Assembly (NCBI GenBank): GCA_965248435.1
Contig: OZ252100.1
Span: 2,016,001 to 2,080,000 of the forward strand
Direction of reading: 5' to 3'
DNA from: Candidatus Latescibacterota bacterium
GTDB taxonomy: Bacteria; Latescibacterota; UBA2968; GCA-2709665
Length of the DNA: 64,000 bases
Position 1 is the first letter of the stretch, and each line of letters opens with the position of its first letter. The notes below the pieces were generated by a model. That model was not told where the DNA came from, searched no databases, and was given only the letters and a program-made list of their open reading frames with translations. The position numbers were made by a program, and so were the translations under genes. Shown in pieces: positions 39,445 to 62,990 of the stretch.

Positions 39445-39503
39445 CTATAACGTTCTCGGGCTTTTGCAAACCTTGCCGACCCGTCAGGGCTGGAGTGTTG
39501 GTT
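39445..39503 (-). repeat. attC-like site, degenerate
   Basis: ctataacgttctcgggc...gtgttgg. Confidence 0.55.
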
Positions 39504-39576
39504 GCCCCGACGCTCTCCCTCTCAACGATCGGCTAAAGCAATTCCGGGCACGAAATTGCCCTCTTTGTTATTGAAA

Positions 39577-40362
39577 TCATCCGCGCTTGCGGCGGACCGA
39601 GATGATGCTTGGGCTATCAGCAGTCAGCGATTCCAGATTCCAATCGCCATACTGCCGTACGATGCTGAAGCCATTGTAGAATAGCAGTGCTGCAAGCTCC
39701 TGCGGGAAGGTGTAACGCAGCGCGATGCGAGTGACCTTGGTGTGATCCTCCTCACCCTCGTGCCAGCGTTTGTAGGTCGTCCAGTGGTGGATCTGAGCCA
39801 TATGGTCATATACGTACGTTCTCGATACACGCACTTCGCTCCCGCTGGTATCGCTAAAAGAAGGCCAATCTTGCTCTTCTTCGTTCGTCTCAAGGGGTAC
39901 AAATAGCCCTTCTGGGGTCTGGGAGTGGGGGAAAAGTGGGTTGCGCGTTTCGAAGGCAAACAATCCCTCGTCGTGTAAATGTGCATGCACGCGTTGCAAC
40001 AGTGCTTCTTGATCTGCGTTTGTCAGAAAACTCTGGAAGGCGTTGCCAGTCAAGAAGATGAGTCGAAATTGTTCGCCAAGGTCAAATGTGCGTGCGTCAC
40101 CCGCAATCCAGCGCGTAGGGAGGCCAACAGATTTGCTACGCGCCTGATCTATCATTCCAGGGACAATATCCAAGCCAGTTACAGAAAAGCCCAAGCGGGC
40201 AATCGGGATGCTGACGCGACCCGTGCCACAGGCAATTTCGAATACAGAACCACCCGTTTCTTGCGCCAGGGCTGCGTAGAAGGCGATGCCTGTATCGCTG
40301 GCATCCCCCATGTCATAGTTGGCTGGATCGGAGAACTCCTCGAGATTGTCGTGATCAATCAA
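39577..40362 (-). CDS. Class I SAM methyltransferase
   Basis: EIACGTGR, GLDI, GDAR. Confidence 0.9.
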   Translation of the reverse strand: MIDHDNLEEFSDPANYDMGDASDTGIAFYAALAQETGGSVFEIACGTGRVSIPIARLGFSVTGLDIVPGMIDQARSKSVGLPTRWIAGDARTFDLGEQFRLIFLTGNAFQSFLTNADQEALLQRVHAHLHDEGLFAFETRNPLFPHSQTPEGLFVPLETNEEEQDWPSFSDTSGSEVRVSRTYVYDHMAQIHHWTTYKRWHEGEEDHTKVTRIALRYTFPQELAALLFYNGFSIVRQYGDWNLESLTADSPSIISVRRKRG

Positions 40363-40407
40363 TTCGCTGCTTCCTATTTCTTCAAGCGAAAACCCTGGGT
40401 AGTGTGC

Positions 40408-40905
40408 TCATTGCTCGGCCTGCTCAATTGCATTACGAAGCTTCTCCGCAAATTTTGCCATTTCGTCTGGCGTAGTTTCAATGACGCCATTCTCATGCAT
40501 TAGCGCATAGTATTGCTGTTGCTCAAGCGGAACCCCCTTTGGAAGCGGCGCCACATGCCAATGGACATGTGAATTGGCGGCTTGGCTTCCTAGGCTTAGA
40601 ATGTAGATGCGTTCTGGTTCAAGCAATTGTCTCATTGCTTCCGAAATTTTGTATATGAAACGCTGTAGATCCAGATATTCCTTCTTATCGAAGTCACCTG
40701 TGACCTGTTCGTGGTGTTTCTTCGGGGCAACTAAGACATATCCAAAGAGAGTTGGGAACCTGTTAAGAAAGGCAACTGCAGTGTCGGTTTCAGCAACGAC
40801 TAAATGCTCATAACGGGGGTTACCCGCTAGGAATTCGCAAATAAAGCAATTCGTATCTTTCTTTGTAAGACGAGACATATCGAATGGTACGCGCGTTCTA
40901 TCCAT
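40408..40905 (-). CDS. HIT-family protein
   Basis: CFIC, HVHWH. Confidence 0.9.
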   Translation of the reverse strand: MDRTRVPFDMSRLTKKDTNCFICEFLAGNPRYEHLVVAETDTAVAFLNRFPTLFGYVLVAPKKHHEQVTGDFDKKEYLDLQRFIYKISEAMRQLLEPERIYILSLGSQAANSHVHWHVAPLPKGVPLEQQQYYALMHENGVIETTPDEMAKFAEKLRNAIEQAEQ

Positions 40906-41419
40906 GGGGGTGACTGTTCTCCCAGTCCTCCCGTCTAATCTCCATATTCAAGATCAGTATCTCTTCTTGCAGAAGTCTAGAGTGGGATTGCCTTTTAGTT
41001 TTTGATGTGAATCCGGCTGCCTTGTAACACCGGATTGCGGGATGATTCGTGTCAAAGACTCCAAGCCCGACCTTGACGAAGTCCATTTCCTCAAATCCCA
41101 CCCGCAGCGCTTCAGCCAGGATTCTTCTTCCAATCCCCTTCGACCTCGCATCTGGTTTCACTATGACTCGGAATAGCCGACCCTCTTTCGGGTGTAACTC
41201 TCTAATCTCGAAGTATCCAAGAAGGTTTCCTAGGGAATCAATTGCCGAGAATCCGGTATGATCCGTCTCGCTGTGATGCTGGTTAAATGGCCCTTTCTCC
41301 AGGGGAAAATCAAACCAGGCACCACCCCAATATGCGAACTCCTTCTTGTCACTCACCCAGGTAGCGAGTCTGTCAAAATCGTTTTCTTGATATGGGCGTA
41401 TGGATACAGACTCTTCCAC
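40898..41419 (-). CDS. GNAT acetyltransferase
   Basis: RSKGIG, NHPAIRCYKAAGF. Confidence 0.88.
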   Translation of the reverse strand: MEESVSIRPYQENDFDRLATWVSDKKEFAYWGGAWFDFPLEKGPFNQHHSETDHTGFSAIDSLGNLLGYFEIRELHPKEGRLFRVIVKPDARSKGIGRRILAEALRVGFEEMDFVKVGLGVFDTNHPAIRCYKAAGFTSKTKRQSHSRLLQEEILILNMEIRREDWENSHPHG

Positions 41420-41424
41420 GGTGT

Positions 41425-41562
41425 TCAGATCCTGTTAACCCATCTGTGCCACGGATATTTGTTGGTGCTGTATCGCTCATGAAGTTCAAACCGAGCATAC
41501 AGGTTGCTGGCGTCCTTGTACTGTTCGGTAAGCAGGTAGTTTTGATCTGAAAGCCTCGACAT
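41425..41562 (-). pseudogene. Truncated 5' fragment of a probable SAM methyltransferase
   Basis: Manual translation MSRLSDQNYLLTEQYKDASNLYARFELHERYSTNKYPWHRWVNRI*, recalled as a methyltransferase N-terminus. Confidence 0.55.
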
Positions 41563-41590
41563 GGAATCCCTATGAGCCGGAGGTGCCGTA

Positions 41591-42100
41591 TTAAATGTTG
41601 TCATGCCCCCCAGCTTCTGGGAGTTCTAAGAAACGTTCGAACCAGTGCCTGGTGCTAGGGTGCATCTTGTAGTTCCTTGCCCAATTAGCATATGACTTCC
41701 TTGCGTTCTCTCTAACTCCTTTCAGGGAAAGTGCAAGACCCTGGAAGGCGGCCCAGTCGCAGACTGTCTCTCTTCTGGCTGACTCTGGAATCTCAATGCA
41801 ACTGCCGTCTTTGTTATACCAGTGGGGCAGTTCGTGATCATTCCTCGCAATGTGGTGGGCGTTGGCTTTTTTAAACAGACCCATATTTCGCTCTTTCTCG
41901 GTCGGGTTGCTAGGATGGAAATGTCGGCCAATCCCGAAGTACTCGATGGGGGTAATCTTGCTATAGTCGTGCAAAAAACCTCGTAAGGGCACGCCCAGCA
42001 TTACTGAGTGAACGAAGACCCGAAGCTTGTGCTTGACCAGATATGCTATGGTTGGAAGATGCCTCATGATCAATTCGATATTTCTCAGACTTTCCCACAT
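41591..42100 (-). CDS. HD-like DUF5662-type protein
   Basis: KHK...HDYSK...HHIARNDH...E.VCDW. Confidence 0.65.
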   Translation of the reverse strand: MWESLRNIELIMRHLPTIAYLVKHKLRVFVHSVMLGVPLRGFLHDYSKITPIEYFGIGRHFHPSNPTEKERNMGLFKKANAHHIARNDHELPHWYNKDGSCIEIPESARRETVCDWAAFQGLALSLKGVRENARKSYANWARNYKMHPSTRHWFERFLELPEAGGHDNI

Positions 42101-42107
42101 CGAATCT

Positions 42108-42155
42108 GAACCTGCCGCAGGTTTACGCGTAGGCGCGAATGCACCGGAGCCGTGC
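42108..42155 (-). repeat. attC-like remnant (core only)
   Basis: gaacctgccgcaggtt...ggcgcgaatgcaccggagccg without AAC/GTT ends. Confidence 0.6.
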
Positions 42156-42199
42156 CTGATTCGCCTGCAGCAACAGGATCTCTGGCCGCCCATATGTGG

Positions 42200-42751
42200 T
42201 CATCGTCTTTCCGTCGAATAGAGTATTAGGTCAATGTCCCGTCCGTGGATCCTGTCGGCCTTTTCGAGCAGCTTTTCCCGAGTAAACCCGAGGCGCTCGA
42301 GCAATAGGGCGCTACCGGTGTTACCGACAGCTGAGCAGGCCACGACCCGCTCGCGATCGAGCACATCGAATGCATAGTCGATCAGGCGACGACCGCAAAT
42401 GGCCGCGACCCATCTGCCCTGGTACGCCGCACCGACCCAACATTCGAGTTCGATTGCATGTGGCTGCCCCGCCACTCCGACGAAGGAAACCCAACCGGCG
42501 ATCATCCCCTTGTGTAGCATGCAGAATGCCGGGCCCTTGCCGTCTTTGCCCTGTTCGCGGTCCTCGATGATCGACCGCATCTCGTCCGGCGAGCGGATCG
42601 CGCTAACCCATGGTATCCACTCGTCGAGGTAAGCCCGGTCAGCTTCGACCAGCGCGAAAAGCCCCACCGCGTCCTCTGGCAGGGCTGAGCGTAGGCGGAT
42701 TCGGGGCGTCAACTGTTCGTCCACTCGGACTGGAGGCATCGAAGGGTCCAT
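42200..42751 (-). CDS. RimJ/RimL-type GNAT acetyltransferase
   Basis: YLDEWIPW, YQGR, NTGSALLLERLGFTRE. Confidence 0.85.
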   Translation of the reverse strand: MDPSMPPVRVDEQLTPRIRLRSALPEDAVGLFALVEADRAYLDEWIPWVSAIRSPDEMRSIIEDREQGKDGKGPAFCMLHKGMIAGWVSFVGVAGQPHAIELECWVGAAYQGRWVAAICGRRLIDYAFDVLDRERVVACSAVGNTGSALLLERLGFTREKLLEKADRIHGRDIDLILYSTERR

Positions 42752-42785: not shown

Positions 42786-42920
42786 ATATAACGGTCTCGG
42801 CACCCACGAACCTGCCGAGCGGGCGCGGCGGTTGCCACAAGTTGTGATTTAAAGCAAGCGCCGTGAACGAGGTTTGGCGAAGGCGCGAATGCGCCGGAGC
42901 CGGGGGTGCGCGTGTTACAC
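42786..42920 (-). repeat. attC-like site, long form
   Basis: ataacggtctcggcaccc...gggtgcgcgtgttacac. Confidence 0.85.
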
Positions 42921-43093
42921 GCTGTGTTGTCCTTTGTCATCGAGAAAGGAATAAAGGAGCGACCATAACGCTCTTTGTCTTTTACGATTTTCTGTTCTTT
43001 AAAAAGGAGATAGCTATTGCAGAGAATCCCCGCCAGATAATTTATCTCACGGGGATCTCATATTACATAACATGCTTGAAAGGTTAAATCGAA

Positions 43094-43158
43094 TATTAAC
43101 GGCTCGCGTCCACCGGTAAAATGCGAGCGCAGCGAGTAGTTTAAACGCTTTGTTAGAT
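43094..43158 (-). repeat. attC-like site of a different (foreign) family, partly decayed
   Basis: ttaacggctcgcgtccaccgg...gcgagcgcagcgag...cgctttgttagat. Confidence 0.55.
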
Positions 43159-43212
43159 TTATGTGCTCGACGATACTCCGTGCTTATCATACCCTAACGA
43201 CCGCATACCTTA

Positions 43213-43671
43213 TTAAAAACGGCGCACAGCTAGAAAAACGCCAATAGCCATAAATACCAGCCCAACGAAACGTTGAACAGATATTGGGTGATGAGGAGCA
43301 CCCAATAGACTGTAGTGATCAATGATTGCCATTGAAATGAGCTGGCCTAACAATACCAAAGCGACAGCATTTCCAACACCAAACCTGGGCGCAACCCAAG
43401 TTATGCTGAGAATATAAAATATTACAAATAGCCCACCTAGATAGAAATAGATGGGGATTGAAGTTTGAGGGTTAAACTTAGGCATACCTTCGAAGATGAA
43501 CAAGAACCCAAGGGAAACTACGATGCCCACCGTAAATAGGATTGTTGTAGCTAATGCTGGGCTTTGGAGTTTTTCGCCTAACCCTCCGTTCAACGCGGCC
43601 ATTACTGGAATTCCTAGGCCTGCAATCAACATTAAAACTGCGTAAAAGATTGAATGATGCAGTCCGTTCAT
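43213..43671 (-). CDS. DMT-family (YdcZ/DUF606-like) transporter
   Basis: AALNGGL, LGGLF, PRFG, GQLISMAIIDH; AT-rich. Confidence 0.88.
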   Translation of the reverse strand: MNGLHHSIFYAVLMLIAGLGIPVMAALNGGLGEKLQSPALATTILFTVGIVVSLGFLFIFEGMPKFNPQTSIPIYFYLGGLFVIFYILSITWVAPRFGVGNAVALVLLGQLISMAIIDHYSLLGAPHHPISVQRFVGLVFMAIGVFLAVRRF

Positions 43672-43745: not shown

Positions 43746-43830
43746 GTGTAACGTTCTTTGTGTGTGCGAACCTGCGAAGCAGGTTTTCAGTGAGGGGCGG
43801 ATGCCCCGAACGGCACACACAATGTTACCT
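43746..43830 (-). repeat. attC-like site
   Basis: gtaacgttctttgtgtgtgcgaacctgc...gcacacacaatgttacc. Confidence 0.9.
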
Positions 43831-44873: not shown

Positions 44874-44959
44874 AGGTAACGTTCTCGCGGGCTGCGAACC
44901 TGCGTCAGCAGGTTGGGCGAAGTGGCGAATGCCACGAGCCGCAGCCCGCCGTGTTATGT
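44874..44959 (-). repeat. attC-like site
   Basis: gtaacgttctcgcgggctgcg...cgcagcccgccgtgttatg. Confidence 0.92.
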
Positions 44960-45028: not shown

Positions 45029-45712
45029 TTAAGAATTAAGTTCACTCAAGGAAGGACCATCTCCTTCAGTTTCGTATAGCCAAGCTTCCAAGTTTCTCTT
45101 GATTGCAGGCCACTCGTCGTCCATCATCGCATACCAGGCAGTATCCCGGTTTTTGCCCTTGATAATCATATGCTGTCTGAAGATCCCCTCAAACTTGAAT
45201 CCCAGTCGAATTGCTGCGGACCGCGATCGCTCATTCACGGCGTCACACTTCCACTCTACTCGTCGATAGGCCAGGCGATCGAACGCCTCAGAAAGCATCA
45301 AGTAGACACATTCAGTATTGACTTTCGTTCTCTGAGCTTCCGGACCGTACCAGATATGTCCGAGTTCGAGCCTTCTCATGTCTGCGACTACGTTCAGGAA
45401 GGCAACCATGCCCACTCGTTTCTGAGATTCCTCCTGGTGAACAGTAAGAAACAGGGGGTCATCCGAGTTCTCGGTGCTTTCCAGCCAAGAGGCCATTGAA
45501 TCTTGGCTTGCAAACGGTCCGTACCCCATATAGGTCCAGAGTAATTCTCCATCCACCGTCCCGTGCGAGCACTCGTAAAGCTCTTGCGCGTCCTGCTTTG
45601 CCTCGACTGGTGCGAGAGTCACGAACTTTCCAGAATAAACTCTTCTCTCTGGAAGATCCTGTGGACTTCCCACGTTAGCAGGCTCTCCAGCGAGCAAGGA
45701 ATTCGAACTCAC
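45029..45712 (-). CDS. RimJ/RimL-type GNAT (cassette)
   Basis: ELGHIW, RRVEWKC, RLGFKFEGIFRQH, NRDTAWY. Confidence 0.9.
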   Translation of the reverse strand: MSSNSLLAGEPANVGSPQDLPERRVYSGKFVTLAPVEAKQDAQELYECSHGTVDGELLWTYMGYGPFASQDSMASWLESTENSDDPLFLTVHQEESQKRVGMVAFLNVVADMRRLELGHIWYGPEAQRTKVNTECVYLMLSEAFDRLAYRRVEWKCDAVNERSRSAAIRLGFKFEGIFRQHMIIKGKNRDTAWYAMMDDEWPAIKRNLEAWLYETEGDGPSLSELNS

Positions 45713-45792: not shown

Positions 45793-45878
45793 ATATAACG
45801 GTCCCAGGCCTTGCGAACCTGCCGCAGGCGGGTTGCAGTGAGGGCCGTCAGGCTCGAACCGCAAGGCCTGTGTTAAGC
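45793..45878 (-). repeat. attC-like site
   Basis: ataacggtcccaggccttgcg...cgcaaggcctgtgttaag. Confidence 0.92.
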
Positions 45879-46780: not shown

Positions 46781-46864
46781 GCTTAACGTTCTCGGCACCC
46801 ACGAACCTGCGAAGCAGGTTGGAGCGGAGGCCGAATGGCCGGAGCCGAGGGTGCCGTGTTAACC
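46781..46864 (-). repeat. attC-like site
   Basis: ttaacgttctcggcaccc...gggtgccgtgttaac. Confidence 0.92.
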
Positions 46865-47396: not shown

Positions 47397-47534
47397 GGTT
47401 AACGTTCTCGCGGGCTGCGAACCTGCCAAGCTGGCGCGGCGCTTGCAAACGAGGTTTCAAAGCAAGCGCCGTGACAGCGACAGGCAGGTTGCGCGAGGGG
47501 CGAATGCCACGAGCCGCAGCCCGGCGTGTTAGCC
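47397..47534 (-). repeat. attC-like site, long form
   Basis: Family arms plus an extra ggcgcttgc...gcaagcgcc branch. Confidence 0.92.
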
Positions 47535-48451: not shown

Positions 48452-48535
48452 GGCTAACGTTCTCGGCACCCACGAACCCGCGTAGCGAGTTGGGCGGAGG
48501 CCGGATGGCCGGAGCCGTGGGTGCTCGTGTTATAG
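48452..48535 (-). repeat. attC-like site
   Basis: ctaacgttctcggcacccacg...cgtgggtgctcgtgttata. Confidence 0.92.
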
Positions 48536-49279: not shown

Positions 49280-49420
49280 CTATAACGTTCTCGCGGGCTG
49301 CGAACCTGCCAAGCTGGCGTGGCGCTTGCAATCAACGTCTATCAAAGCAAGCGCCGTGACAGCGACAGGCAGGTTGGGCGAAGTGGCGAATGCCACGAGC
49401 CGCAGCCCGTCGTGTTATGC
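49280..49420 (-). repeat. attC-like site, long form
   Basis: Family arms plus extra branch. Confidence 0.92.
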
Positions 49421-50242: not shown

Positions 50243-50304
50243 GTCAAATTCCTTTAGTCATTCCGCAGTTGAGGCTCGCAGCACTGCGCATTGTATCTTG
50301 AAAA

Positions 50305-50470
50305 TATGATCTATTTGTAGATTATCTTGGTTCGAAGAAGACCTCTGGGGAGGCCGGATTGCGCATGAAGGCATTGACCTTGGACGTTAGATAGGCCCCC
50401 CGCCTTCTTGGCCCATGCCGAGGAGTATCCGAGACCCGAGAGTCTGTATCACAAGGCTGGTAGGCCAGGT
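50305..50470 (+). ncRNA. Predicted IS110 bridge RNA (target-binding and donor-binding loops)
   Basis: Stem ggggaggcc/ggcccccc encloses guides TTGCGCAT and ACGTTA (match target TGCGCAT|AACGT); stem tggcc/ggcca encloses GAGTATC and ACAAG (match donor junction GAGTATCT|TGT). Confidence 0.8.
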
Positions 50471-50513
50471 GCAAGGTCGGGGGACCAGAGGTACAAATAA
50501 GGAGGGAGAGATC

Positions 50514-51506
50514 ATGAAGCAAGAGAATCTGTTGGGGGTAGATGTCTCAGCCCGGGAGCTGGTGGTCGCGATCCGTCGCTCAGGGAAAGCGTATCCACTG
50601 GCAAGATTTCCCAACACAGGCGAAGGGCACCGTCGATTGATCAAGTGGGCGACAAAGTGGGGAAAGCCGGCTCGAGTGGGAGTCGAGGCCACAGGCATCT
50701 ATAGTTTTGAGGTGGCGTTGGCGTTGTATCGGCATCCGAAGACTCAGGTGATGGTAATCAACCCCAGAGCGCTGAGGAATTTCTCTCAGGCTTTGATGAA
50801 ACGGGGGAAAACCGACCCGATCGATGCGGAAGTGGCATTGGAGTATGTGCAGCGGATGCCCTTCCAGACGTGGCAGGCACCCCGTGATGAAGTACTTGAC
50901 CTGCAGGCGATTACACGCCGGATCGCGCAGATCAAAGTCGAGATCAACCGGGAAGGAAACCGGCTTCACGCTTCCACGCAACGCCCATCGGTCGCGTCTG
51001 CGGTCGCCTTGGACATCGAAGAGCATGTTGAACATCTCAAAGCGCGTGTGCAGCAGCTGAAAGCGCGGGCTCTGGAGCTCATTGAGGGGGAAGCCACTCT
51101 GCGCGAGAAGTTCGCGCGATTGACTTCCGTTCACGGGATCGCAGCAACCAGCGCGATGGGCATTCTGGCAGAGATTTCGATGTTGCCTGCCGACATGAAG
51201 CCTGCCCAATGGGTGGCCTACGCAGGCCTGGATCCACGACCCCACGAATCGGGAGACACGATTCAGAAGCGCCGAGTGATCTCCAAAGCGGGGAATAAGT
51301 ACTTACGAACCGCCTTATATATGCCAGCGCTGGTGGCCATTCAACAGCAGCCCAATGTGAAGGCGTTCTACGAAAAACTCATCAGTCGAGGCAAGAAGCC
51401 CATGCAGGGGGTCATCGCGGTGATGCGAAAGCTGCTTCACTCCATCTGGGGTATTCTCCAACACAACCAGGACTTCGACGGAGAAAAGTTCTACAAAATG
51501 GCTTGA
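50514..51506 (+). CDS. IS110 recombinase (DEDD RuvC-like + Tnp20)
   Basis: GVDVS, VEATG, KTDPID, AYAGLDP..HESG, ISKAGNKYLR, AVMRKL. Confidence 0.95.
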   Translation: MKQENLLGVDVSARELVVAIRRSGKAYPLARFPNTGEGHRRLIKWATKWGKPARVGVEATGIYSFEVALALYRHPKTQVMVINPRALRNFSQALMKRGKTDPIDAEVALEYVQRMPFQTWQAPRDEVLDLQAITRRIAQIKVEINREGNRLHASTQRPSVASAVALDIEEHVEHLKARVQQLKARALELIEGEATLREKFARLTSVHGIAATSAMGILAEISMLPADMKPAQWVAYAGLDPRPHESGDTIQKRRVISKAGNKYLRTALYMPALVAIQQQPNVKAFYEKLISRGKKPMQGVIAVMRKLLHSIWGILQHNQDFDGEKFYKMA

Positions 51507-51519
51507 CCACCAAGAGAGT

Positions 51520-51612
51520 ATCTAACGTTCCCGCCACTTGCGAACCCGCCCCCAGGCGGGTTGCCGCAGGCCAAGGCGCGGATGCGCCGCAGCGCAAGTG
51601 GACGTGTTATGG
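51520..51612 (-). repeat. attC-like site (outer end replaced by IS110)
   Basis: taacgttcccgccacttgcg...cgcaagtggacgtgttatg. Confidence 0.9.
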
Positions 51613-52628: not shown

Positions 52629-52772
52629 CCATAACGTTCTCGCGGGCTGCGAACCTGCCAAGCTGGCGCGGCGCTTGCCACCCACGATTGTCTTAAGCAA
52701 GCGCCGTGACAGCGATAGGCAGGTTAGGCCGGAGGCGCAAATGCGCCGGAGCCGCAGCCCGGCGTGTTAGCC
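52629..52772 (-). repeat. attC-like site, long form
   Basis: Family arms plus extra branch. Confidence 0.92.
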
Positions 52773-52808: not shown

Positions 52809-53213
52809 TTACAGGGGAGCAGCATGATCAGCCTCTGTAAGACTGACGATCTCGAATCTCGTACCCTCGGGGCCTCGAAAGAATACTGCATAGTAGTCAC
52901 CACCATATTCAGGACACTCCTCCGGTCCATCGGTAATCACGATGCTTCGATCTTCCGCCCAGACCGCAAATCTATCGACCTCCTCCCGGCTGCGCGCTGT
53001 GAACGCAAGGTGCTGGAGGGCCCCCGGAGGTGAGCCAGACTCCACATCTTTCAAATAGATGCGTGATCCTCTGCCCTTCCAGCCCGCGAGGGCTTCATGA
53101 GTTTTCTCCTTAGTCATACCGAGAAAGCCAACCAACAACTCGTCGAAAAACGCCTCAGCCTCTGCTGGCTCCTGAAGTCCGAGTCCGATATGGTGAATCA
53201 CAGAATTTATCAT
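52809..53213 (-). CDS. VOC-family protein (cassette)
   Basis: HHIGL, HLAF, YYAVFFRGPEG. Confidence 0.88.
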   Translation of the reverse strand: MINSVIHHIGLGLQEPAEAEAFFDELLVGFLGMTKEKTHEALAGWKGRGSRIYLKDVESGSPPGALQHLAFTARSREEVDRFAVWAEDRSIVITDGPEECPEYGGDYYAVFFRGPEGTRFEIVSLTEADHAAPL

Positions 53214-53243: not shown

Positions 53244-53328
53244 GGCTAACGTTCTCGCGGGCTGCGAACCTGCGCAGCAGGTTGGACGAAGTGGCGAATG
53301 CCACAAGCCGCAGCCCGGCGTGTTAGCG
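53244..53328 (-). repeat. attC-like site
   Basis: ctaacgttctcgcgggctgcg...cgcagcccggcgtgttagc. Confidence 0.92.
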
Positions 53329-54462: not shown

Positions 54463-54537
54463 CGCTAACGATTAAGCGTGTATCCGGAGTCGGAGAAGCG
54501 TGGACGGGAGCGGGATTCCGGATACACGGTGTTGAAC
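54463..54537 (-). repeat. attC-like site of distinct sequence abutting the recombinase/HUH element
   Basis: ctaacgattaagCGTGTATCCGGAgTC...GATTCCGGATACACGgtgttgaac. Confidence 0.8.
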
Positions 54538-54742
54538 GAAGCCGCTTCACCTGCCTATGGGGATTGGATGAGTGATTCTTGTGTAAGGACCGCTGGGCTG
54601 GCCCAGTCATCGGACCGTATTTGAAGCTGTTTGGAGGGGCCGATGTCGCAGGATCCCATAGTCGCTCTACCAAGCTCAAAGAGTGGACAGACTACTGCCG
54701 TGTTGGGTGGTTGGGCTTGCGGACAAGGGATGGTGTAGGAGC

Positions 54743-55933
54743 TCAAGCTACGGCAACATGTGCCGGAGGCGCTCGCAGAGGCGCGAGGGTTCCGACTGTG
54801 AGCATAGGGCCTCCGCACTGCGCACAGACCTGAAGATCGATGCCTGTTACCCGGAACAGAAGGTCCTGCCAGGTCGCCTTTGTGGCTGCGGAAGCCGTCG
54901 TGCATACAGTGCCCAGGAGCCTACGGCATCGTGCGAGCTTTTTCCGGCGACCCCGATTGCTGAGCAGTCCGTAGTGCCGGATCTTCACGAAGCCATCCGG
55001 CAGGATGTGAAGCAGGAACCGCCGGATGAACTCGTAGGCATCGACGGTCATCAGCTTCCGTCGGTTGCCGGCCTGGCGGTCCCGGTAGTGGAATGAGACC
55101 CGGTCGCCCTCACAGGCGACCAGCCGGTGGTTGGAGATGGCGATCCGGTGCGTGTATCGTCCCAGATAGGCCACGATGCGTTCTGGACCCGCAAAAGTCG
55201 GCTTGACGTAAACGGTCCATTCCCTCTGGTAAAGACCCCGAAGCAGATCGAAGAACGCATCTTCCAGTGGAGCACTCAATCCCGGGAACGCCAGAAGGCC
55301 TTCCTGGTGCGCGTCCTTCAGGAACGCAAGGAACTTCCCCCGGAACAGTCGGGACAGAACTTTTACGGGTAGAAAGAAGCCCCGTCGCGCCGCCTTCCAT
55401 TCCTGACCGTCGTGGGTCAGCCCACCTCCAGTTACGATACAGTGCAGATGCGGGTGGTCGATGAGTGTCTGAGACCACGTATGAAGCACGGCGGTAAAGC
55501 CGATCTGCGCTCCAAGATACTTCCGTTCCCGCGCCAGCTCCAGAAGACTCTGCGATGCGGCTTTAAACACCAGGTTGTAGATCAGCTTCTGGTTCCGCAG
55601 AGCAAGCGGCCGCAGGGGCTCGGGCAACGTGAAGACGACGTGGAAGTATGGGATCGGAAGGAGATCCTCTTTACGAGCGTCGATCCATCGTTCGGTCGTC
55701 AGGAACTGGCACTTCGTACAGTGCCGGTTGCGGCAGGAGTTGTAGGCGATCCGCTTCGTTCCGCACTGCCCGCACACTTCCACGTGTCCGCCCAGCGCAG
55801 CTGTTCGGCAGATCTGGATGGCTCGCATGGCCCGCTTCTGCCGAAGCGGCATGTGATCACCGTAGTGTGCTTGATACCCATCTCCGTGGACTCGGAAGAT
55901 GTCGGCGACTTCGAGAGGCTGTGACATGGCCAA
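54743..55933 (-). CDS. IS91-family (Y2/HUH) rolling-circle transposase with Zn-binding domain
   Basis: CRTAALGGH, SCRNRHCTKCQ, YFHVVFTLP, HPHLH (HUH), YLGRY (Y2), RFLLHILP. Confidence 0.93.
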   Translation of the reverse strand: MAMSQPLEVADIFRVHGDGYQAHYGDHMPLRQKRAMRAIQICRTAALGGHVEVCGQCGTKRIAYNSCRNRHCTKCQFLTTERWIDARKEDLLPIPYFHVVFTLPEPLRPLALRNQKLIYNLVFKAASQSLLELARERKYLGAQIGFTAVLHTWSQTLIDHPHLHCIVTGGGLTHDGQEWKAARRGFFLPVKVLSRLFRGKFLAFLKDAHQEGLLAFPGLSAPLEDAFFDLLRGLYQREWTVYVKPTFAGPERIVAYLGRYTHRIAISNHRLVACEGDRVSFHYRDRQAGNRRKLMTVDAYEFIRRFLLHILPDGFVKIRHYGLLSNRGRRKKLARCRRLLGTVCTTASAATKATWQDLLFRVTGIDLQVCAQCGGPMLTVGTLAPLRAPPAHVAVA

Positions 55934-55939
55934 CCTCTG

Positions 55940-56791
55940 CTACAAGGTCGGCTTGTCTTCATCTCCCAAAAGGTCCAGGGGGCTTCTGATACGCGTGAGA
56001 TCGCGAGTGGTGACGTGGAGGTAGACGGTGGTGGTTCGCAGGCTCGTGTGACCCAACAGTTGTTGGACGAAACGGACGTCCACTCCGTTGTCCAGAAGAT
56101 GTGTGGCGAAGCTGTGACGCAGAGAATGGACACTCGCACGCTTTTGTATCTCGGCGCGTCGGCAGGCCTGCTCGAAGACTTTCTGGACACTGCGGGCGTG
56201 GAGCGGTGCATCCGGTCTTTCGCCAGGGAACAGCCAATCGCGAGGCTGGTAGCTGCGCCAGTAGACGCGGAGTGCCTTTAACGCCTCCTGGGCCAGAAGC
56301 GTCTCTCGCTCTTTTTGGCCTTTGCCCCGCACACGGATCAGCATCCGGTCACTGTCGATATCGGAAAGCTTTAGCCCGATGGCCTCACTCAGTCTGAGCC
56401 CACCAGAGTAAATGACCATCAGCAGCGTACGGTGTTTCAGGTTGTTGGTCCTGTCGATCAGCCGCTGCACTTCCTCTGTGGAGAGTACCACCGGGAGCTT
56501 CTTTGCCTTCTTCGCACGAGGGATGCCCCACTCGACCCAGTCACGCTTCAACGTCGTTTGGAACAGAAACTTCAGTCCGCTGTATACCTGGTTGACATAG
56601 CTTTGGGACAGCTTCCGCTCAGTGATCAGATAGTGCAGATAGGCGCGGATCTCTTCTTCGCTGAGCCGGTCGGGCGGTGTCTTGCAGTAACGACACAGCC
56701 CGGCCACTCCGCTCACGTACGCCTTCTGCGTATCCGGATCTAAACCTTTCAACTGCATGTCCCGGATCATTCGCTTCCGATGCTTGGTCAT
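55940..56791 (-). CDS. Tyrosine recombinase, IntI-related but lacking the IntI-specific insertion
   Basis: LPVVLSTEEV, YSGGLRLSE, HSLRHSFATHLL, LLGHTSLRTTTVY; only 283 aa with a short LFP-to-HxxR segment. Confidence 0.92.
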   Translation of the reverse strand: MTKHRKRMIRDMQLKGLDPDTQKAYVSGVAGLCRYCKTPPDRLSEEEIRAYLHYLITERKLSQSYVNQVYSGLKFLFQTTLKRDWVEWGIPRAKKAKKLPVVLSTEEVQRLIDRTNNLKHRTLLMVIYSGGLRLSEAIGLKLSDIDSDRMLIRVRGKGQKERETLLAQEALKALRVYWRSYQPRDWLFPGERPDAPLHARSVQKVFEQACRRAEIQKRASVHSLRHSFATHLLDNGVDVRFVQQLLGHTSLRTTTVYLHVTTRDLTRIRSPLDLLGDEDKPTL

Positions 56792-56942
56792 GGCTCTCTC
56801 CTTCTGCTGATGGTGGACGTTGTTAGCAGAAGGAGGATGCGAAGCACAGAGCCATTTGCAAAGTGGCTCCGGACTTGCACGGTATCATATCCTGGTTGTC
56901 AAAGAGCAAAGGCCTTGCAGCAGGCCACCGCGAAGCGGTTTA

Positions 56943-57021
56943 GTTCAACTTCTGCATTCGCGTACTTCGTGGATTCCACCAAGGTACGAGTATCTGCGCC
57001 CTACGCCTATCCCGGTTAAAC
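56943..57021 (-). repeat. Possible attC-like hairpin at the other end of the element
   Basis: gttcaac...gtacttcgt...acgagta...gttaaac; imperfect pairing. Confidence 0.4.
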
Positions 57022-57074
57022 GTACTTAACACGCCCTTGTTCGTGAATCCCTTTCTATAGAGACACGTGAATTT

Positions 57075-57163
57075 GACAACCGAGTGCCGCGTAATACGGC
57101 CGATCCCGCGAAGGATGTTGGGCCAAAGAGCGAAGCGACCGAAGCGCAAAGCCCGTGTTACAC
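57075..57163 (-). repeat. Degenerate attC-like site
   Basis: Right half gttgggcc...gaagcgcaaagcccgtgttacac resembles the family. Confidence 0.55.
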
Positions 57164-57181: not shown

Positions 57182-57664
57182 CTAGTCATCATGAGCAAGC
57201 ATAGGCACATTCGAGGTGAAATACTGCCGAAGTAGAGATGCATACCTTCGTCTCTGATCGGCGGGCGCAATTGAAAATTCCGATCTATACAGGTTGTCTC
57301 CCTCGAAGCGCGGAAGTACGTGCAAATGATAGTGCCACACATCTTGACCCCCTGCCGGCTCATTGTTCTGGCGGGTAGTAACACCATCACAGTCGTGAAC
57401 AGATTTCAGCGCTAGGGCAAGATGTCGAGAAAAGCGGTGTATTCGGTCGGAGAGGCGGCCCGGTAGTTCGTAAAGGTTCTCAACATGCCTCTTTGGAATT
57501 ACGAGTGCATGCCCAGGATTATTAGCCCACCAATGCAGACTAATGATCGAGAAAATCAGATTATCCTCATATACCAAATATGGGTTATCAATGTGAGAAT
57601 CATCACCCATCATTCCGCAGAAGGGACAAGGATACCCATCAGGTTCGTGGCTAAACAAAGGCAT
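57182..57664 (-). CDS. HIT-family protein (cassette)
   Basis: CPFC, GQDVWHYHLH. Confidence 0.92.
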   Translation of the reverse strand: MPLFSHEPDGYPCPFCGMMGDDSHIDNPYLVYEDNLIFSIISLHWWANNPGHALVIPKRHVENLYELPGRLSDRIHRFSRHLALALKSVHDCDGVTTRQNNEPAGGQDVWHYHLHVLPRFEGDNLYRSEFSIAPADQRRRYASLLRQYFTSNVPMLAHDD

Positions 57665-57697: not shown

Positions 57698-57785
57698 GCA
57701 TAACGGTCCCGCCGTGCGCGAACCGCCGCAGGCAAGTTAGGTCGGAGGCCCGAAAGGGCCGAAGCCGCAGCCCGGCGTGTTATGC
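57698..57785 (-). repeat. attC-like site (arms mismatched)
   Basis: gcataacggtcccgcc...cgcagcccggcgtgttatg. Confidence 0.85.
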
Positions 57786-57847: not shown

Positions 57848-58892
57848 CGAGTTCAATAAGGAAGTGCAACACTTAGGGTAGCAACTGTCCTATCCTAAGT
57901 GTATGGGAAACAATTACAAGCATCTTACGATAGACGAACGCGAGCAGATTGCGCTTTGTCGAGCCACTGGTGCAAGCCTTAGAGATATTGCCAAGGCCCT
58001 TGACCGGAGCGCCAGCACGATTTCAAGAGAGTTGAAACGTAATCCGTCCCCGATAGCTGAGAGTTACTCGGGCCTCCAGGCTCACAGAAGGGCTGAGAAA
58101 CGTAAGCGGGAGGCCGGCAAGCGGAAACGGCTGAAGAATCCGGTTATCCGGCGATATGTCGAGACCAAACTCAAGCAAGGATGGTCTCCCGAGTTGATCG
58201 CTGGGAGGCTTCCCGAGGAGCGTCCGAGCGCGGGTATCAGCCACGAAGCCATCTACCAGTATATCTACGATCCAAAGGTGCACAAGCAGCGGGATCTGGT
58301 TGCTTGCTTATCCCGAGCTCACAAAAAACGAAAGCCGCGGTGGCATACCCGAAAACACCGGGAAAGCCACATTCCAGGCCGTATTTCGATCGATCGACGT
58401 TACATCGAAAAACGGAAACAACCTGGCCACTGGGAATCCGACACCATCATCTCTCGTGAGAGCAAACAGGCCGTTGGCGCTTGTCTTGAGCGATCGTCGA
58501 GATACCTACACCTGGCTAAGCTGGCAAAGAACGGACCCTCGGAGGTCGCCGAAGCGATTAATCGACGCCTTGGGCGACATCCTCCCCACATGAGGAAGAG
58601 CATCACATATGACAACGGATCCGAAAACGGCCAACATCAACGGGTCAACGAGGTGCTTGGCACCAAATCCTATTTCTGCAAACCGTTCCACAGCTGGGAG
58701 CGAGGCGCTGTGGAAAACGCTATCGGTCTGGTCCGCAGATACCTCCCCAAGAAGACAGACTTCTCAAAGGTCAGCAAACACGAGTTAAAGAAAATTCAGA
58801 ACCGGATCAACAACCGACCAAGAAAATGTCTTAACTTCAAAACACCAGCTGAAGTCTTCAAGTCCAAGTGTTGCACTTAGTCATTGAATCCA
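57848..58892 (+). mobile_element. IS30-family insertion sequence
   Basis: Imperfect ~27-bp IRs with perfect core AAGTGCAACACTT (57862) / AAGTGTTGCACTT (58866). Confidence 0.9.
57903..58880 (+). CDS. IS30-family transposase
   Basis: STISRELKRN, WSPE, GHWESD, TYDNGSE, WERGAVEN, RPRKCL. Confidence 0.95.
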   Translation: MGNNYKHLTIDEREQIALCRATGASLRDIAKALDRSASTISRELKRNPSPIAESYSGLQAHRRAEKRKREAGKRKRLKNPVIRRYVETKLKQGWSPELIAGRLPEERPSAGISHEAIYQYIYDPKVHKQRDLVACLSRAHKKRKPRWHTRKHRESHIPGRISIDRRYIEKRKQPGHWESDTIISRESKQAVGACLERSSRYLHLAKLAKNGPSEVAEAINRRLGRHPPHMRKSITYDNGSENGQHQRVNEVLGTKSYFCKPFHSWERGAVENAIGLVRRYLPKKTDFSKVSKHELKKIQNRINNRPRKCLNFKTPAEVFKSKCCT

Positions 58893-59511: not shown

Positions 59512-59598
59512 GCATAACGGTCTCGACACCCACGAACACGCTGCAGGCAGGTTGAGCGCCAGGCCGAATGGCCGGAGCCGTGCGTGCACGTGTTAGGC
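59512..59598 (-). repeat. attC-like site
   Basis: gcataacggtctcgacacccacg...gtgcacgtgttaggc. Confidence 0.85.
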
Positions 59599-59622: not shown

Positions 59623-60354
59623 TTAGGCCAAATGGTCCTCAGCCTCTGTGACAATGGTGCCTGGCTCGAAACCCCGACAAATGTCAAGCATTGCCCCTTC
59701 CGCATCGAAGTCGAATACGTGGATCGGCAAACCACACTTTTGAGCCTTGACTATCGCTGGGAGGTCCATGACTTCCAACTCCTGCGAAATCGCAGTGTGA
59801 TATGACAGAGTCTGGTATCGTCTCGCCTCCACGTCAGTCTTCGGATCCGAAGTGTACACCCCATCGACGCCGCATTTAGCTGCCAACACCGCCTCAGCAT
59901 GGAGCTCCCGGGCTCGTAGGACCGACGGAAGATCTGTGGTGACATACGGATTCGCCGTTCCTCCCGCTAAAAGCAAGATGGCACCTTGTTCAAGGTATTT
60001 GACTGCGTTGTGTTTCAAAAAGGGCTCTGCAACGCTGTCTGCGCCAATAGATGACATGACTTTGACAGTAGTAGTAGTTTTGCTCTCGATTACTCCCTTG
60101 AGAAGGAGAGAGTTCATCAGAGTCGCCATCATACCGATGTTGTCCGCGTCGGGTCGCTCGATACCCCAGCGTTCCCCGAGTTCTCCGCGAAAGATGTTAC
60201 CTCCGCCAACCATCGCGGCAACTTCTATCCCTATGTCGCTCAGTCTAAGTAACTCATCGGCGATATGCTCGAGACAGGAAGGGTCGAAGCCCGCCTCTTT
60301 CGATCCAGCGATTGCTCCGCCACTTAGCTTTAGCATGACTCGTTTATATCGCAT
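59623..60354 (-). CDS. Uridylate kinase (PyrH-like) paralog within the array
   Basis: YKRVMLKLSG, VGGGNIFRG, ADNIGMMAT, VDGVYTSDP, VMD. Confidence 0.88.
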   Translation of the reverse strand: MRYKRVMLKLSGGAIAGSKEAGFDPSCLEHIADELLRLSDIGIEVAAMVGGGNIFRGELGERWGIERPDADNIGMMATLMNSLLLKGVIESKTTTTVKVMSSIGADSVAEPFLKHNAVKYLEQGAILLLAGGTANPYVTTDLPSVLRARELHAEAVLAAKCGVDGVYTSDPKTDVEARRYQTLSYHTAISQELEVMDLPAIVKAQKCGLPIHVFDFDAEGAMLDICRGFEPGTIVTEAEDHLA

Positions 60355-60415
60355 CTTGGTAGCCTCGTGATTCTGAGTTGCTTTAGATGTCGCCCCTCAA
60401 ATTTGCGTTAGCCTA

Positions 60416-60958: not shown

Positions 60959-61020
60959 GCTCCCTGCAGTCCATTATGAACTGCAATATTCATGACTCGG
61001 ATTCGGAAATACCCTGTCGC

Positions 61021-61121
61021 GTATAACGTTCTCGGCCGGTTTTCTTAAGCAAGCGTCGTGACAGCGATAGGCAGGTTGGGCGAGGGACGGATGCCCCAAG
61101 CCGCAGCCCGTCGTGTTAGGC
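61021..61121 (-). repeat. attC-like site, long form with internal deletion
   Basis: gtataacgttctcgg...aagcaagcgtcgtgacagcgataggcaggtt...cgcagcccgtcgtgttagg. Confidence 0.85.
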
Positions 61122-61152
61122 GTTGCCCTCCCCGGCCACATTGCCAAGAGGA

Positions 61153-61935
61153 TCAGAACATCACATCCAGAAGAAGGAAATACTCAATCTTGTCCCAATC
61201 CGGTTTCTCTCCAAGACGCTCCAGAAGCAGAGCTACGTGCTGCTCTCCGAGGTCCTCTCTGACGCTCCTTATGCACATGGCAATGTCAAACCATTTGTCT
61301 CCGACACCTCCGCGTCCCCAGTCGATGATCCCAGAAATGCGCTGACCATCGAGGAAGAAGTTCCCGTCACTCATGTCACCATGAGAGAGCGTGGGCTCCT
61401 GATCTGGAATATTGTCCTTTAGATGCTTGACCAGCGCTGAGGGCGATGGGAAACCTGTATTCTCAGAGTAAAAGTCCTCTTCGGCGGCCAGTCCACTTTC
61501 CAGGAGGTACTCCAGTTCAGTCAGTCTTCTTTCAACGGGAATGGCAAATGGGCATTCGACATGATCAATTGATTGAATGAGCCTCAAAGCTTCCAGGTAG
61601 GTGTCTATTACTTCTGGAGGACCATGGTCCTTCCTTTCGTACAGCGATACGCCATCCACTTCCGATATGAGCAGATACTCACGATCGGCATCAGAAGCAA
61701 AATGCATAACCCGGGGAACGGCAAGCTTACCATCGAGCCATCGTAGGACACACTTCTCTCGTCCGACTCCGTATGTTGTGTTCGCATACCGCTTGTCGCT
61801 GACCTTCAAGAACATGACATCCTTGTCTCTGGAGAGGCTGTACACATCGCAGGGTGACATACTACCCGCTTGAGATGAAAGCGAATAGTCAGAAACGATC
61901 GACTGGAGACTGTCAGGTAGTGAGTGTAGTTCCAT
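61153..61935 (-). CDS. Aminoglycoside 3'-phosphotransferase-like protein (cassette)
   Basis: GSMSPCDVY, FLK, WLDGKLAVP, SHGDMSDGN, IDWGRGGVGDKWFDIA, KIEYFLLLD. Confidence 0.85.
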   Translation of the reverse strand: MELHSLPDSLQSIVSDYSLSSQAGSMSPCDVYSLSRDKDVMFLKVSDKRYANTTYGVGREKCVLRWLDGKLAVPRVMHFASDADREYLLISEVDGVSLYERKDHGPPEVIDTYLEALRLIQSIDHVECPFAIPVERRLTELEYLLESGLAAEEDFYSENTGFPSPSALVKHLKDNIPDQEPTLSHGDMSDGNFFLDGQRISGIIDWGRGGVGDKWFDIAMCIRSVREDLGEQHVALLLERLGEKPDWDKIEYFLLLDVMF

Positions 61936-61951
61936 TCCTCAAATGGTTTCC

Positions 61952-62036
61952 GCCTAACATTCTCGCCGGCTGCGAACTGCCGCAGGCAATTGGGCGAAGG
62001 CGCGTATGCGCCGCAGCGCAAGTGGACGTGTTACAC
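61952..62036 (-). repeat. attC-like site (chimeric arms)
   Basis: cctaacattctcgccggctgcg...cgcaagtggacgtgttacac. Confidence 0.85.
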
Positions 62037-62114
62037 GCTGGCGGCGCGGGCTTCGTCATGGCGAAGCCCCCCACAGGCCGGGAGTACAGTGCACGCCACA
62101 AACAGGGGTGGCAG

Positions 62115-62794
62115 TTACACACTCGGGTTCACGACCTGGCAGGAGCACCCAGGAGCAACGTACTCGCTGGCCCCCTCGCCAAATCGGACGACACCATCAT
62201 AGCCAAGAGCGATGATCTCCGTACCGGCAACCACGATCGCGGACCGTTCTGAGATGGCAAGTACAGGGTGCGAATGGTCCCCGACCAGCCGTGATATCAT
62301 TGGGTCGTCTGAAGTCTTGTAGTGACACCATATCGTGAAGCCGTGGACGACCCCGAGACCAGTCGTGTCCGTCAGCCCTACGTCATTGGGATCCGCATGT
62401 TCGCAACTTCTGATGTCGCACCCCATTATGATCGCGCCGGCACTTCCGCCGAAGACTGGTCCGCCCGCTTCGATGAAGCGTCGCAGAGCGGGCTCCATCT
62501 TCTTCGAGCGCAAGTGGCAAGCATTGAGAAGGTGTTGCCCCCTCCGATATACACTCCGCCAAACTCCCCAAGACGATCCGGATTGTAGTCTCCAGGGCCC
62601 GCCCACATCTGGATGGAGGTGACCCCGAAGGGGGACATTGTCGCACAGATCCATCTGTAGGAATCCTCTGCCGGAAAGGCATCACCGGGCATATATAGCA
62701 GAGGTTTCCTGCCTGCGATCCAGGCCGCAAAGAGTTCGTGGTGAAGACGGGTTTCGTTCTCGTCTCCGCCTCCAGATAGCACGAGTCTCATCAT
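62115..62794 (-). pseudogene. Peptidase E (S51)-like cassette, frameshifted near 62520
   Basis: LSGGG...IGGGNTF in one frame; GGSAGA...CHY in another. Confidence 0.8.
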
Positions 62795-62895
62795 TGGGTC
62801 GATCCCTTGTCTGTCGTCCAATGGAGGGGTTTGGCTTCCTGCTCTTGTGCACGTCTTTCCGGGGTGGGGTGGCTGGGCAGTCCTGTGCCGCTTGC

Positions 62896-62990
62896 GTGTA
62901 ACGTTCTCGGCACCCACGAACTTGCCAAGCGGTGTTGGGCGAATGCCCGTTAGGGCTGAGCCACGCAGCGTGAATTGCCGTGACGTATGA
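62896..62990 (-). repeat. attC-like site, right end degenerate
   Basis: gtgtaacgttctcggcacccacgaac... Confidence 0.7.

Follow-up and report, generated by a model that had tools for sequence, protein, structure and literature searches.

We analysed a stretch of 64,000 nucleotides (hereafter the window) from a Candidatus Latescibacterota bacterium (assembly GCA_965248435.1, contig OZ252100.1, positions 2,016,001 to 2,080,000), and found that the region from window position 39448 to the window end is the larger part of a sedentary integron-type cassette array. A further 8.8 kb of the array lies past the window end, and the whole covers ~33 kb (C1:2055448-2088804 in contig coordinates), with ~25 sites located by a motif scan and a covariance model named R1. 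Mostly single minus-strand genes alternate with related TAAC...GTTA sites, each unit consisting of one gene without a visible promoter and then one site of a lineage-specific family. The array is probably an integron-type store without a recombinase of its own, its cognate enzyme belonging to a family of IntI-like tyrosine recombinases that do not have the insertion specific to IntI. We infer this enzyme from linkage, side, orientation, shared boxes and conserved junctions, all of which are features of sequence.

Extent of the array

Scanning the window with the head motif of the sites gave 18 matches, 17 of them intergenic between 39448 and 62899, in agreement with the ~17 related hairpins between minus-strand genes that an initial annotation of this DNA had described, and the array was confirmed with R1. 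The remaining match, at 60562, was rejected as chance because it lies inside an open reading frame and has no tail. R1 was trained on 14 aligned window sites (ten short and four long); in the window it returned these at 66-95 bits, together with two degenerate sites (61021 and 62896) and two fragments (42108 and 57089), and did not return the divergent site at the left end (39448). Over the 20 kb that follow the window, five sites matched strongly and two weakly, L009:8720-8804 being the last of them, and the limits first given for the array (39445-62990) were thus too narrow. Beyond the head of the array come folD, genes for a DUF5069 protein and a GNAT, and other genes of ordinary appearance, and on the other flank lie genes for a luciferase-like monooxygenase and an extracytoplasmic function sigma factor. 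The cassette proteins belong to the GNAT, methyltransferase, HIT, NUDIX, glyoxalase, APH, CPT and MBL-fold families, and the gene content of the array is typical of integron cassettes.

The stretch was present in five sequencing runs, all as contigs (at least 96% of the sampled words in four of them and 6% in the fifth). The contig joints of the four main runs lie inside repeated sites, and their 22-30-letter sides match repeats elsewhere equally well.

Fold of the sites and covariation

The + strand of a site is predicted to form a three-way junction. Its outer stem is TAACG/TGTTA, its main stem (9-11 bp) covaries between sites, and two hairpins complete it. Hairpin 1 (GAACCTGC...GCAGGTT) occurs in a short form or in a form ~60 nt longer, hairpin 2 has a G(A/G/T)AT loop, a 4-nt bulge (TTCT) separates the outer from the main stem, and an invariant CGAAC...GTT is found at the junction. 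In an alignment of 65 sites from five genomes, which was fitted to the model and so favours it, 94.5% of the cells paired, compared with 77% in column shuffles and 30-39% with slid partners. Compensatory changes were present in 15 of the 23 pairs in this alignment, including eight of the nine main-stem pairs, and none of 500 shuffles reached the observed values; the initial annotation had also reported a covarying main stem. An independent MAFFT/RNAalifold analysis of ten sites agreed with the model (compensatory changes in 11 of 24 pairs). The TAAC/GTTA pairs were present in 58-64 of the 65 sites. The fifth outer pair (pair 8/218) was G.T in 58 of them, indicating that this pair forms on the + strand only. 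At the gathering thresholds of Rfam no match was found in the window.

We also observed chimeric sites (window 57698-57785 and 61952-62036, and C1:1439407), in which the 5' and 3' main-stem arms are of different stem types. In one of them a non-homologous stem arm has homology on both sides. The chimeras suggest exchange or conversion inside sites, besides exchange at the outer box.

Site geometry compared with canonical attC

In canonical attC sites each arm has a spacer of 5-6 bases, and the arm opposite the AAC triplet has two or three bases that are extrahelical (PMC5027507; here and below, papers are cited from the parts of their text that were available). As controls, 11 attC sites (54-102 nt) were folded with the same script as the array sites. 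They came from the catB2, aph(3')-XV, aac(6')-Ib, blaVIM-1, aadA1, aadA2, dfrA1 and arr-3 cassettes, from one unannotated class 2 cassette and, in two cases, from a cyanobacterial plasmid with an integron integrase. The first loop was near-symmetric (5x4, 2x2 or 1x1) in 10 of the 11 controls, whereas in 36 of the 42 sites folded from this genome it was 4x0, a 4-nt bulge on the 5' (AAC) arm facing no unpaired base. All 11 controls had at least two single-base bulges on the 3' arm, and the array sites had none or one (counts of 4/0 in nine, 4/1 in 20 and 5/1 in four of the 42 sites), which, where present, lies 2 bp above the 4-nt bulge. The number of unpaired bases on the 5' arm minus that on the 3' arm averaged -0.8 for the controls compared with +2.9 for the array sites.

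Thus the array sites have neither an unpaired spacer of 5-6 bases on each arm nor the two or three extrahelical bases of which the first and last are a 6-bp stem apart. Several other properties of attC were found in them. They carry the inverse core boxes AAC/GTT, with a partial match only to the wider RYYYAAC/GTTRRRY consensus; they are imperfect palindromes with a more stable bottom strand, the 42 sites spanning 69-163 nt where attC sites span ~57-141 nt; their terminal structure is variable and branched (the three-way junction, with hairpin 1 short or long); and their outer TAACG/TGTTA stem, including the G.T pair, is the same as in the class 1 attC controls. R1 found no site in four canonical integron loci. 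The deviation from canonical attC geometry put forward in the initial annotation therefore holds against the controls, the asymmetric spacers being real. Its statement that no extrahelical base is present is right for the canonical pair and too strong otherwise, as a single-base 3'-arm bulge is predicted in 24 of the 42 sites. The branched apex was likewise recovered, in short and long forms, but is no deviation, since large sedentary attC sites have complex terminal structures (PMC5027507).

Strand preference and cassette traffic

The + strand of the sites is the non-coding and hence the 'bottom' strand. It folded better than its complement in 37 of the 42 sites, by a mean of -2.6 kcal/mol, and the bottom-strand advantage published for attC sites (n=263) is -2.12 kcal/mol (PMC5027507). 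Cumulative GC skew placed the replication origin near 2.98 Mb and the terminus near 0.2 Mb, and the folding strand of the array lies on the leading-strand template, as in sedentary integrons. Among 30 sedentary integrons, 25 were in that orientation and had the larger arrays (PMC5371416).

Across the genome, scoring 150 of 2195 candidates gave at least 76 R1 sites, which fall into at least seven arrays; they were confined to arrays and not scattered over the genome. In six cases a cassette has a counterpart at 80-97% identity in another array, with different neighbours, and one cassette is duplicated within array A at 99.7% identity, also between different neighbours. The APH-family and peptidase-S51 cassettes (61153-62654) are adjacent in the window and have ~92% identical copies in array B, where one extra cassette stands between them. 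At the junctions of shuffled cassettes the homology breaks off within the TAACGTTCTCG head that they share, as a canonical crossover in the AAC/GTT box would allow. Taken together, these comparisons show that cassettes have been shuffled between at least seven arrays of this genome.

These results bear on whether the hairpins might be intergenic structural repeats, such as repetitive extragenic palindromic (REP)-like elements or terminators, spread between convergent small genes and not recombination sites at all. They are indeed GC-rich hairpins downstream of genes, in a genome with at least one other palindromic repeat family. However, whole cassettes move with their site, the sites end in attC-type AAC/GTT boxes and stay within arrays, the G.T pair is strand-specific, the orientation relative to replication fits integrons, and no Rfam family matches. 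We regard this explanation as very improbable.

A REP-like palindrome, GGGCGAAC(A/C)(C/T)(A/T)(A/G)GGTTCGCCC, is intergenic, occurs genome-wide and is unrelated to the arrays (e.g. C1:860356, 901465, 904408, 1467119, 3621022, 3652697, 3688797, 4500794 and 4900127).

Search for a canonical integrase

The genome assembly comprises two contigs and is 97.5% complete. A six-frame search of the whole genome gave no TIGR02249 match over the cut-off, the best scoring 104 bits compared with 265. The 16 PF00589 matches in the genome were six copies of one gene linked to an insertion sequence (IS), two Xer-like genes, and a few others plus fragments. The initial annotation had left room for a canonical IntI and attI just beyond base 64000; none is there, as the array ends at L009:8804 beside folD, and an attI-like signature was absent from the genome searched. 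The array is thus without the intI gene (PF00589 plus the IntI-specific domain) and the adjacent attI that make a complete integron.

Among 61 genomes of the class, IntI over the cut-off was present in six and R1 sites in 34, with both in two genomes (G004 and G060). The R1-rich genomes G000, G001, G002, G003, G018, G020, G021, G057 and G058 had no IntI over the cut-off. Conversely, no R1 sites were found near the canonical IntI loci examined (20-kb flanks in G004, G054 and G060; short contigs in G059, G055 and G036), nor did we find convincing hairpin arrays beside canonical IntI genes of the related genomes examined. One 71-nt attC-like hairpin lies 1.2 kb upstream of intI at locus L021 in G004.

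Insertion-less recombinases at array heads in relatives

The TIGR02249 matches below the cut-off in relatives led to a family of IntI-like tyrosine recombinases. The array-linked members align with the canonical IntI of G004, a genome of the same family, except for two gaps (30 and 10 residues) at the place of the IntI-specific domain. The recombinase of G001 scored 240.9 bits with TIGR02249 (in two stretches, under the cut-off of 265), 183.9 bits with XerC and 178.2 bits with XerD. The nearest solved structure was VchIntIA (PDB 2a3v; 146.7 bits in two stretches, chain residues 173-239 being skipped). Neither the array-linked nor the IS91-linked recombinases described below have the extra domain near patch III, or the TIGR02249 score above 265 bits, by which IntI is recognized.

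Profile searches for this family covered the class and then the whole phylum (168 genomes), and the flanks of the recombinase genes were scanned with R1. Sites were found within 5 kb of the recombinase at 20 of the 23 loci with usable flanks, which come from kin genomes and are not 20 independent events; the count leaves aside three further loci at contig ends and four others. At all 20 positive loci the sites were on the cassette-5' side of the recombinase, which was co-directional with the cassettes at 14 loci and divergent at six. The G001 recombinase lies within the array, and three sites are found on its far side. Both divergent and 'inverted' orientations are known for IntI at the array junction (PMC4889954). 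Downstream of the co-directional recombinases, five loci share ...ATTACCGTAACTGTTCGGTAATCCCGTA|GTTA, after which cassette-type starts follow, and upstream of the divergent recombinases all six share TAAC|TGCTTGTATGCGAAC-N5-GTTCGCATAATGG. The GCGAAC/GTTCG boxes of these attI-like regions recur in the sites as the invariant junction CGAAC...GTT. A loose palindrome (CGAAC N3-9 KTTCG) tried as an attI probe gave 197 matches in the genome and was of no use.

An Ignavibacteriota metagenome-assembled genome had the same layout, with a recombinase, a GTTA junction 40 nt past its stop codon and at least four sites of the same geometry. In several genomes the recombinase gene has decayed. It is frameshifted in G057 (C2) and G058, and only fragments are left in G002, G020 and G000; in the translated G000 remnant (4954386-4954607) a histidine replaces the catalytic tyrosine.

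Co-directional recombinases (L034:10100-10400, L033 residues 77-111, L035 and L030) carry an N-terminal extension with the motif ...IPGRRWDP..K.W..P. This extension gave a weak HARP-domain match of 21.9 bits, below the cut-off of 25.

The IS91-linked element

An IS91-family element lies inside the window array (54466..57060, - strand, left end approximate; Pfam Y2_Tnp, Zn_Tnp_IS91, Phage_integrase and SAM_4). An attC-like hairpin (54466-54537) forms its end, and it encodes a Y2 transposase (54743-55933) as well as an IntI-like recombinase (55940-56791) whose gene lies upstream of the transposase gene. Some IS91 members have an upstream integrase gene. The transposase domains (PF04986, 207 bits; PF14319, 110 bits) are those of the IS91 family. 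The recombinase is without the IntI insertion and scored 191.4 bits with TIGR02249 in two stretches (cut-off 265). The terminal hairpin, GTTCAAC-ACC-11 bp stem...-GCTTAATC-GTTA, is the end of the element and falls outside the site family, and its place among the sites in the initial annotation was mistaken.

Six copies of the element, with partly defined ends, are 97-100% identical, the other five lying approximately at C1:1447160-1449700, 3849800-3852340, 4651230-4653770, 4841940-4844480 and 5171350-5173890. Identity between the copies ends directly after ...AATCGTTA, and cassette-type starts follow. In five of the six an R1 site is found 0.6-1.5 kb past the hairpin end, that is, at the position of an array head; the element heads arrays B and D, two single cassettes and the left part of the window array. 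Upstream of its recombinase lies a stretch similar to the attI-like region that follows the array-linked recombinases.

These positions could also mean that the IS91-family element itself moves the cassettes, by one-ended rolling-circle transposition through Y2 or by its linked recombinase acting at the hairpin, and that the arrays are by-products. ISCR elements beside class 1 integrons move by rolling-circle, one-ended transposition. The six near-identical copies point to recent activity, and the hairpin-to-site spacing, the end of identity after GTTA and the attI-like upstream region would all suit such a mover. Yet no copy is at the head of arrays A, F and G or of the right part of the window array, relatives with large arrays (G001, G018 and G057) have array-linked recombinases without an adjacent Y2 transposase, and capture by rolling circle leaves the regular one-gene units between folded sites unexplained. 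We consider this explanation improbable. The IS91-linked paralogue may live off the arrays as a parasite or serve them as a mobile platform.

In G004, a recombinase gene of the IS91-linked type was found twice ~390 bp downstream of a canonical IntI gene, one full and one partial (L013; C1:2158606-2160418 and 2493564-2495733). This doublet suggests either a duplicated pair or an element that targets integron att sites.

The proposed cognate enzyme

We propose that the sites would work like attC, folded single strands being exchanged at the outer box, and that their cognate enzyme would be no canonical IntI but a tyrosine recombinase resembling IntI, in which the IntI-specific insertion (the I2 region) is missing. 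Such a recombinase would probably read the conserved GAAC/GTTC boxes common to the sites and the attI-like region, and in relatives recombinases of this type appear to head the same kind of array. In the present genome the enzyme would have decayed to a 92-codon remnant elsewhere, leaving the array as an orphan cassette store. The only intact relatives of the enzyme here would be the six IS91-linked paralogues. One of these lies inside the array, where the attC-like hairpin that it carries is turned towards the left sub-array; it may still mobilize cassettes, or nothing but itself.

A number of observations weigh against this proposal. The head of the array itself has neither a recombinase nor an attI-like signature. 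Three recombinase loci (G049, G004:7274352 and G008) are without sites, and the positive loci are related by descent. Elements that target att sites are known, IS1111-attC elements and group IIC introns among them, so that an array-adjacent recombinase could be a parasite, and the IS91-linked paralogue looks like one. In a quick tree (leaving aside the row arr_G038, for which a wrong reading frame is probable) the array-linked recombinases were not sister to IntI and fell within a broad family of mobile-element recombinases, with an unresolved backbone. That family is mostly unlinked to such sites outside the phylum: when other phyla were scanned from a recombinase alignment (80 loci at no more than 53% identity, close kin excluded), only one of the 80 gave an R1 match, and a weak one, and TAAC...GTTA hairpins were found at one of 17 other-phyla loci scanned (L044). 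The non-matching stem arms of the sites at 57698 and 61952 point to other recombination routes as well. The Kov2 site (L129:5998-6077), the one control without a near-symmetric first loop and a predicted attC-like site 6 kb from an annotated integron integrase on Kovacikia minuta plasmid pB, has a 3x0 first loop together with two 3'-arm bulges, a predicted geometry intermediate between canonical attC and the array sites. Finally, recombination by IntI1 is not lowered by deletion of extrahelical bases in some attC sites (PMC5027507), and a canonical IntI might on this account accept the array sites.

Several of these points would be expected if the array were an ordinary cluster of attC sites without an integron integrase (CALIN), with lineage-specific and functionally ordinary attC sites, a canonical IntI that was lost or is external, and head recombinases that are att-targeting mobile elements. 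CALINs are common and thought to be degraded integrons (PMC4889954; IntegronFinder 2.0 preprint), and taxon-specific conserved attC families have been described (PMC8352920). Canonical IntI does occur in the same family and class (in 6 of 61 genomes, two of them with R1 sites), the class 1 controls have an identical outer stem, G.T pair included, and the IS91-linked paralogue acts as an insertion element, twice 390 bp downstream of a canonical IntI in G004. Against this, no R1 sites were found near any canonical IntI locus examined and the R1-rich genomes have no IntI over the cut-off; the consistent head side at 20 of 20 positive loci and the conserved attI-like junctions would also not be expected from random targeting. 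An ordinary CALIN thus seems an unlikely account of the array, though one to be taken seriously.

Of the claim in the initial annotation that these are a distinct class of site served by a non-canonical recombinase, the site geometry, the lack of IntI and the insertion-less recombinases heading arrays in relatives speak in favour; the enzyme is proposed by comparison, none being present at this head. More tentatively, and with somewhat less than an even chance of being right, the comparisons might point to a second kind of integron, built on an IntI-like recombinase that never had or has lost the I2 domain and on folded three-way-junction sites. Such an integron would dispense with the canonical extrahelical bases and use GAAC/GTTC boxes shared by attI and attC. 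It would occur in both gene orientations across the phylum, a small one, and also in one or more Ignavibacteriota genomes, and current tools would file all its arrays as CALINs.

Features along the window

All sites listed here are on the + strand, and scores are those of R1. The distal end of the array is the divergent leftmost site (39448..39570; TAACGTTCTCGG ... TTGTTA), recognized by its head motif. It is followed by five cassette-type genes on the - strand (39577..42751; methyltransferase, HIT, GNAT, DUF5662 and GNAT by Pfam) without intact sites between them, among which lies a site fragment (42108-42151; partial match, 22.6 bits). The methyltransferase cassette of this region has a second copy in array A (90.7% identity). 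Next comes a long-form site (42786..42920; 70.3 bits). The interval after it (42920-43210) contains no genes and holds a different small palindrome at ~43093-43160 (TAACGGCTCGCG...TTTGTTAGA), which may be a site of another type or else an empty cassette.

Downstream of the cassette for a YdcZ-family exporter (43213-43671, - strand, Pfam) lies the site at 43746..43830 (short form, 73.5 bits; stem ttgtgtgtgc/gcacacacaa, fold computed). The GNAT cassette at 45029-45712 has downstream the short-form site with the top score (44874..44959; 95.1 bits; fold -27.3 kcal/mol, z -4.4). Then follow short-form sites at 45793..45878 (80.1 bits; stem caggccttgcg/cgcaaggcctg) and 46781..46864 (84.3 bits; stem ggcaccc/gggtgcc, fold computed), a long-form site with hairpin 1 longer by ~60 nt at 47397..47534 (82.7 bits; -51.7 kcal/mol, z -5.5), a short-form site at 48452..48535 (86.3 bits) and a long-form site at 49280..49420 (92.5 bits).

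An IS110-family insertion sequence (50286..51551, + strand; transposase 50415-51506, Pfam DEDD_Tnp_IS110 and Transposase_20) abuts the short-form site at 51520..51612 (78.6 bits; stem ccacttgcg/cgcaagtgg, fold computed). It is one of three copies at 98-99% identity, each adjoining an R1 site (the others at C1:1444284-1445549 and C1:3860680-3861922), an arrangement that we take to be reminiscent of the IS1111-attC group. After it come a long-form site (52629..52772; 77.6 bits) and the alpha/beta-hydrolase cassette (53366-54420, Pfam), which owns the short-form site at 53244..53328 (92.4 bits), the first site after the IS91-linked element. On the other side of that element, its insertion has cut a site of which the 3' half is left (57089..57163; 11.5 bits, E 0.9, sequence read); the owner of this site is the HIT cassette at 57182-57664.

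The chimeric short-form site with mismatched main-stem arms (57698..57785; 66.5 bits, from the alignment) is followed inside the array by an IS30-family transposase (57903..58880, + strand; Pfam HTH_38 and rve), a 99.4% identical, inverted copy of which is in array A. The amino-acid-kinase-family cassette (59623-60354, Pfam) has a short-form site downstream (59512..59598; 83.4 bits). A long-form site with an internal deletion (61021..61121; 35 bits) precedes the APH-family cassette (61153-61935) and the peptidase-S51 cassette (62115-62654), both assigned by Pfam, and between these two lies the other short-form chimeric site of the window (61952..62036; 73 bits). The last site of the window is degenerate, its 5' half being intact and its 3' half decayed (62896..62976; 34.2 bits), and the window closes with cassettes for chloramphenicol-phosphotransferase-like and HAD proteins (63006..64000, - strand, Pfam). 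Four cassettes (49445-50242, 52809-53213, 61153-61935 and 63006-63587) encode MBL-fold, glyoxalase/bleomycin-resistance-family, APH-family and chloramphenicol-phosphotransferase-like proteins respectively, on matches at family level only.

Between 22000 and 42000 the GC content falls to 47-50%, from 58-62% further left; the array itself has 51-58%. The interval may be a separate acquired island abutting the array.

Relation to known systems and implications

The array resembles sedentary chromosomal integrons such as that with the Vibrio VCR sites, in its long runs of co-oriented single-gene cassettes and large size with the folding strand as the template of the leading strand, and in sites of 70-160 nt that are highly similar within the lineage, have AAC/GTT ends and a branched, variable apex, and fold better on the bottom strand. 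It differs from them in the 4x0 bulge of the AAC arm where sedentary attC sites have a spacer of 5-6 nt per arm, in the lack of a pair of extrahelical bases 6 bp apart, in the invariant inner CGAAC...GTT box with a conserved second hairpin, and in the absence of an adjacent canonical IntI here and in every relative examined. As in CALINs (Cury et al. 2016), several clusters occur with no integrase within reach, and the array would be called a CALIN if its sites passed the attC model. That category, however, assumes canonical attC sites and a lost IntI, whereas arrays of the relatives have a recombinase at their head, one that falls outside the definition of IntI (PF00589 plus the extra domain).

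The array-linked recombinases are like IntI (TIGR02249; VchIntIA) in scoring higher with TIGR02249 than with XerC and XerD and in having an att-like junction at the array head. Unlike IntI, they are without the insertion of ~35-40 residues, score under the family cut-off and stand apart in the quick tree, and some have the N-terminal extension with its weak HARP-like match. The IS91-family and IS110-family elements recall IS91/ISCR and IS1111-attC elements in sitting in the array, by sites: the IS110 copies abut a site in three of three cases and the IS91-type copies abut arrays in five of six, the window copy lying inside its array. The IS91-type element stands apart from them in having an IntI-like recombinase of its own and an attC-like hairpin at its end.

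The literature, in the parts available, has established CALINs, attC families specific to a taxon and an IntI defined by its extra domain, and in the literature searched (subscription journals and supplements were not covered) we found no account of cassette arrays whose head integrase is without this domain. Taken by itself, the window gives a smaller result, a large orphan cassette store with typical cassette genes in an environmental bacterium, including families related to antibiotic-modifying enzymes. IntI is both defined and searched for by the extra domain that reads the extrahelical bases of the folded attC. If cassette arrays have recombinases without that domain as well, a part of the orphan CALINs that have been counted would be complete and possibly active cassette systems, and the extra domain would be dispensable for cassette capture. 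The step from Xer-like recombination of double strands to recombination of single-stranded attC would then become testable with natural intermediates.

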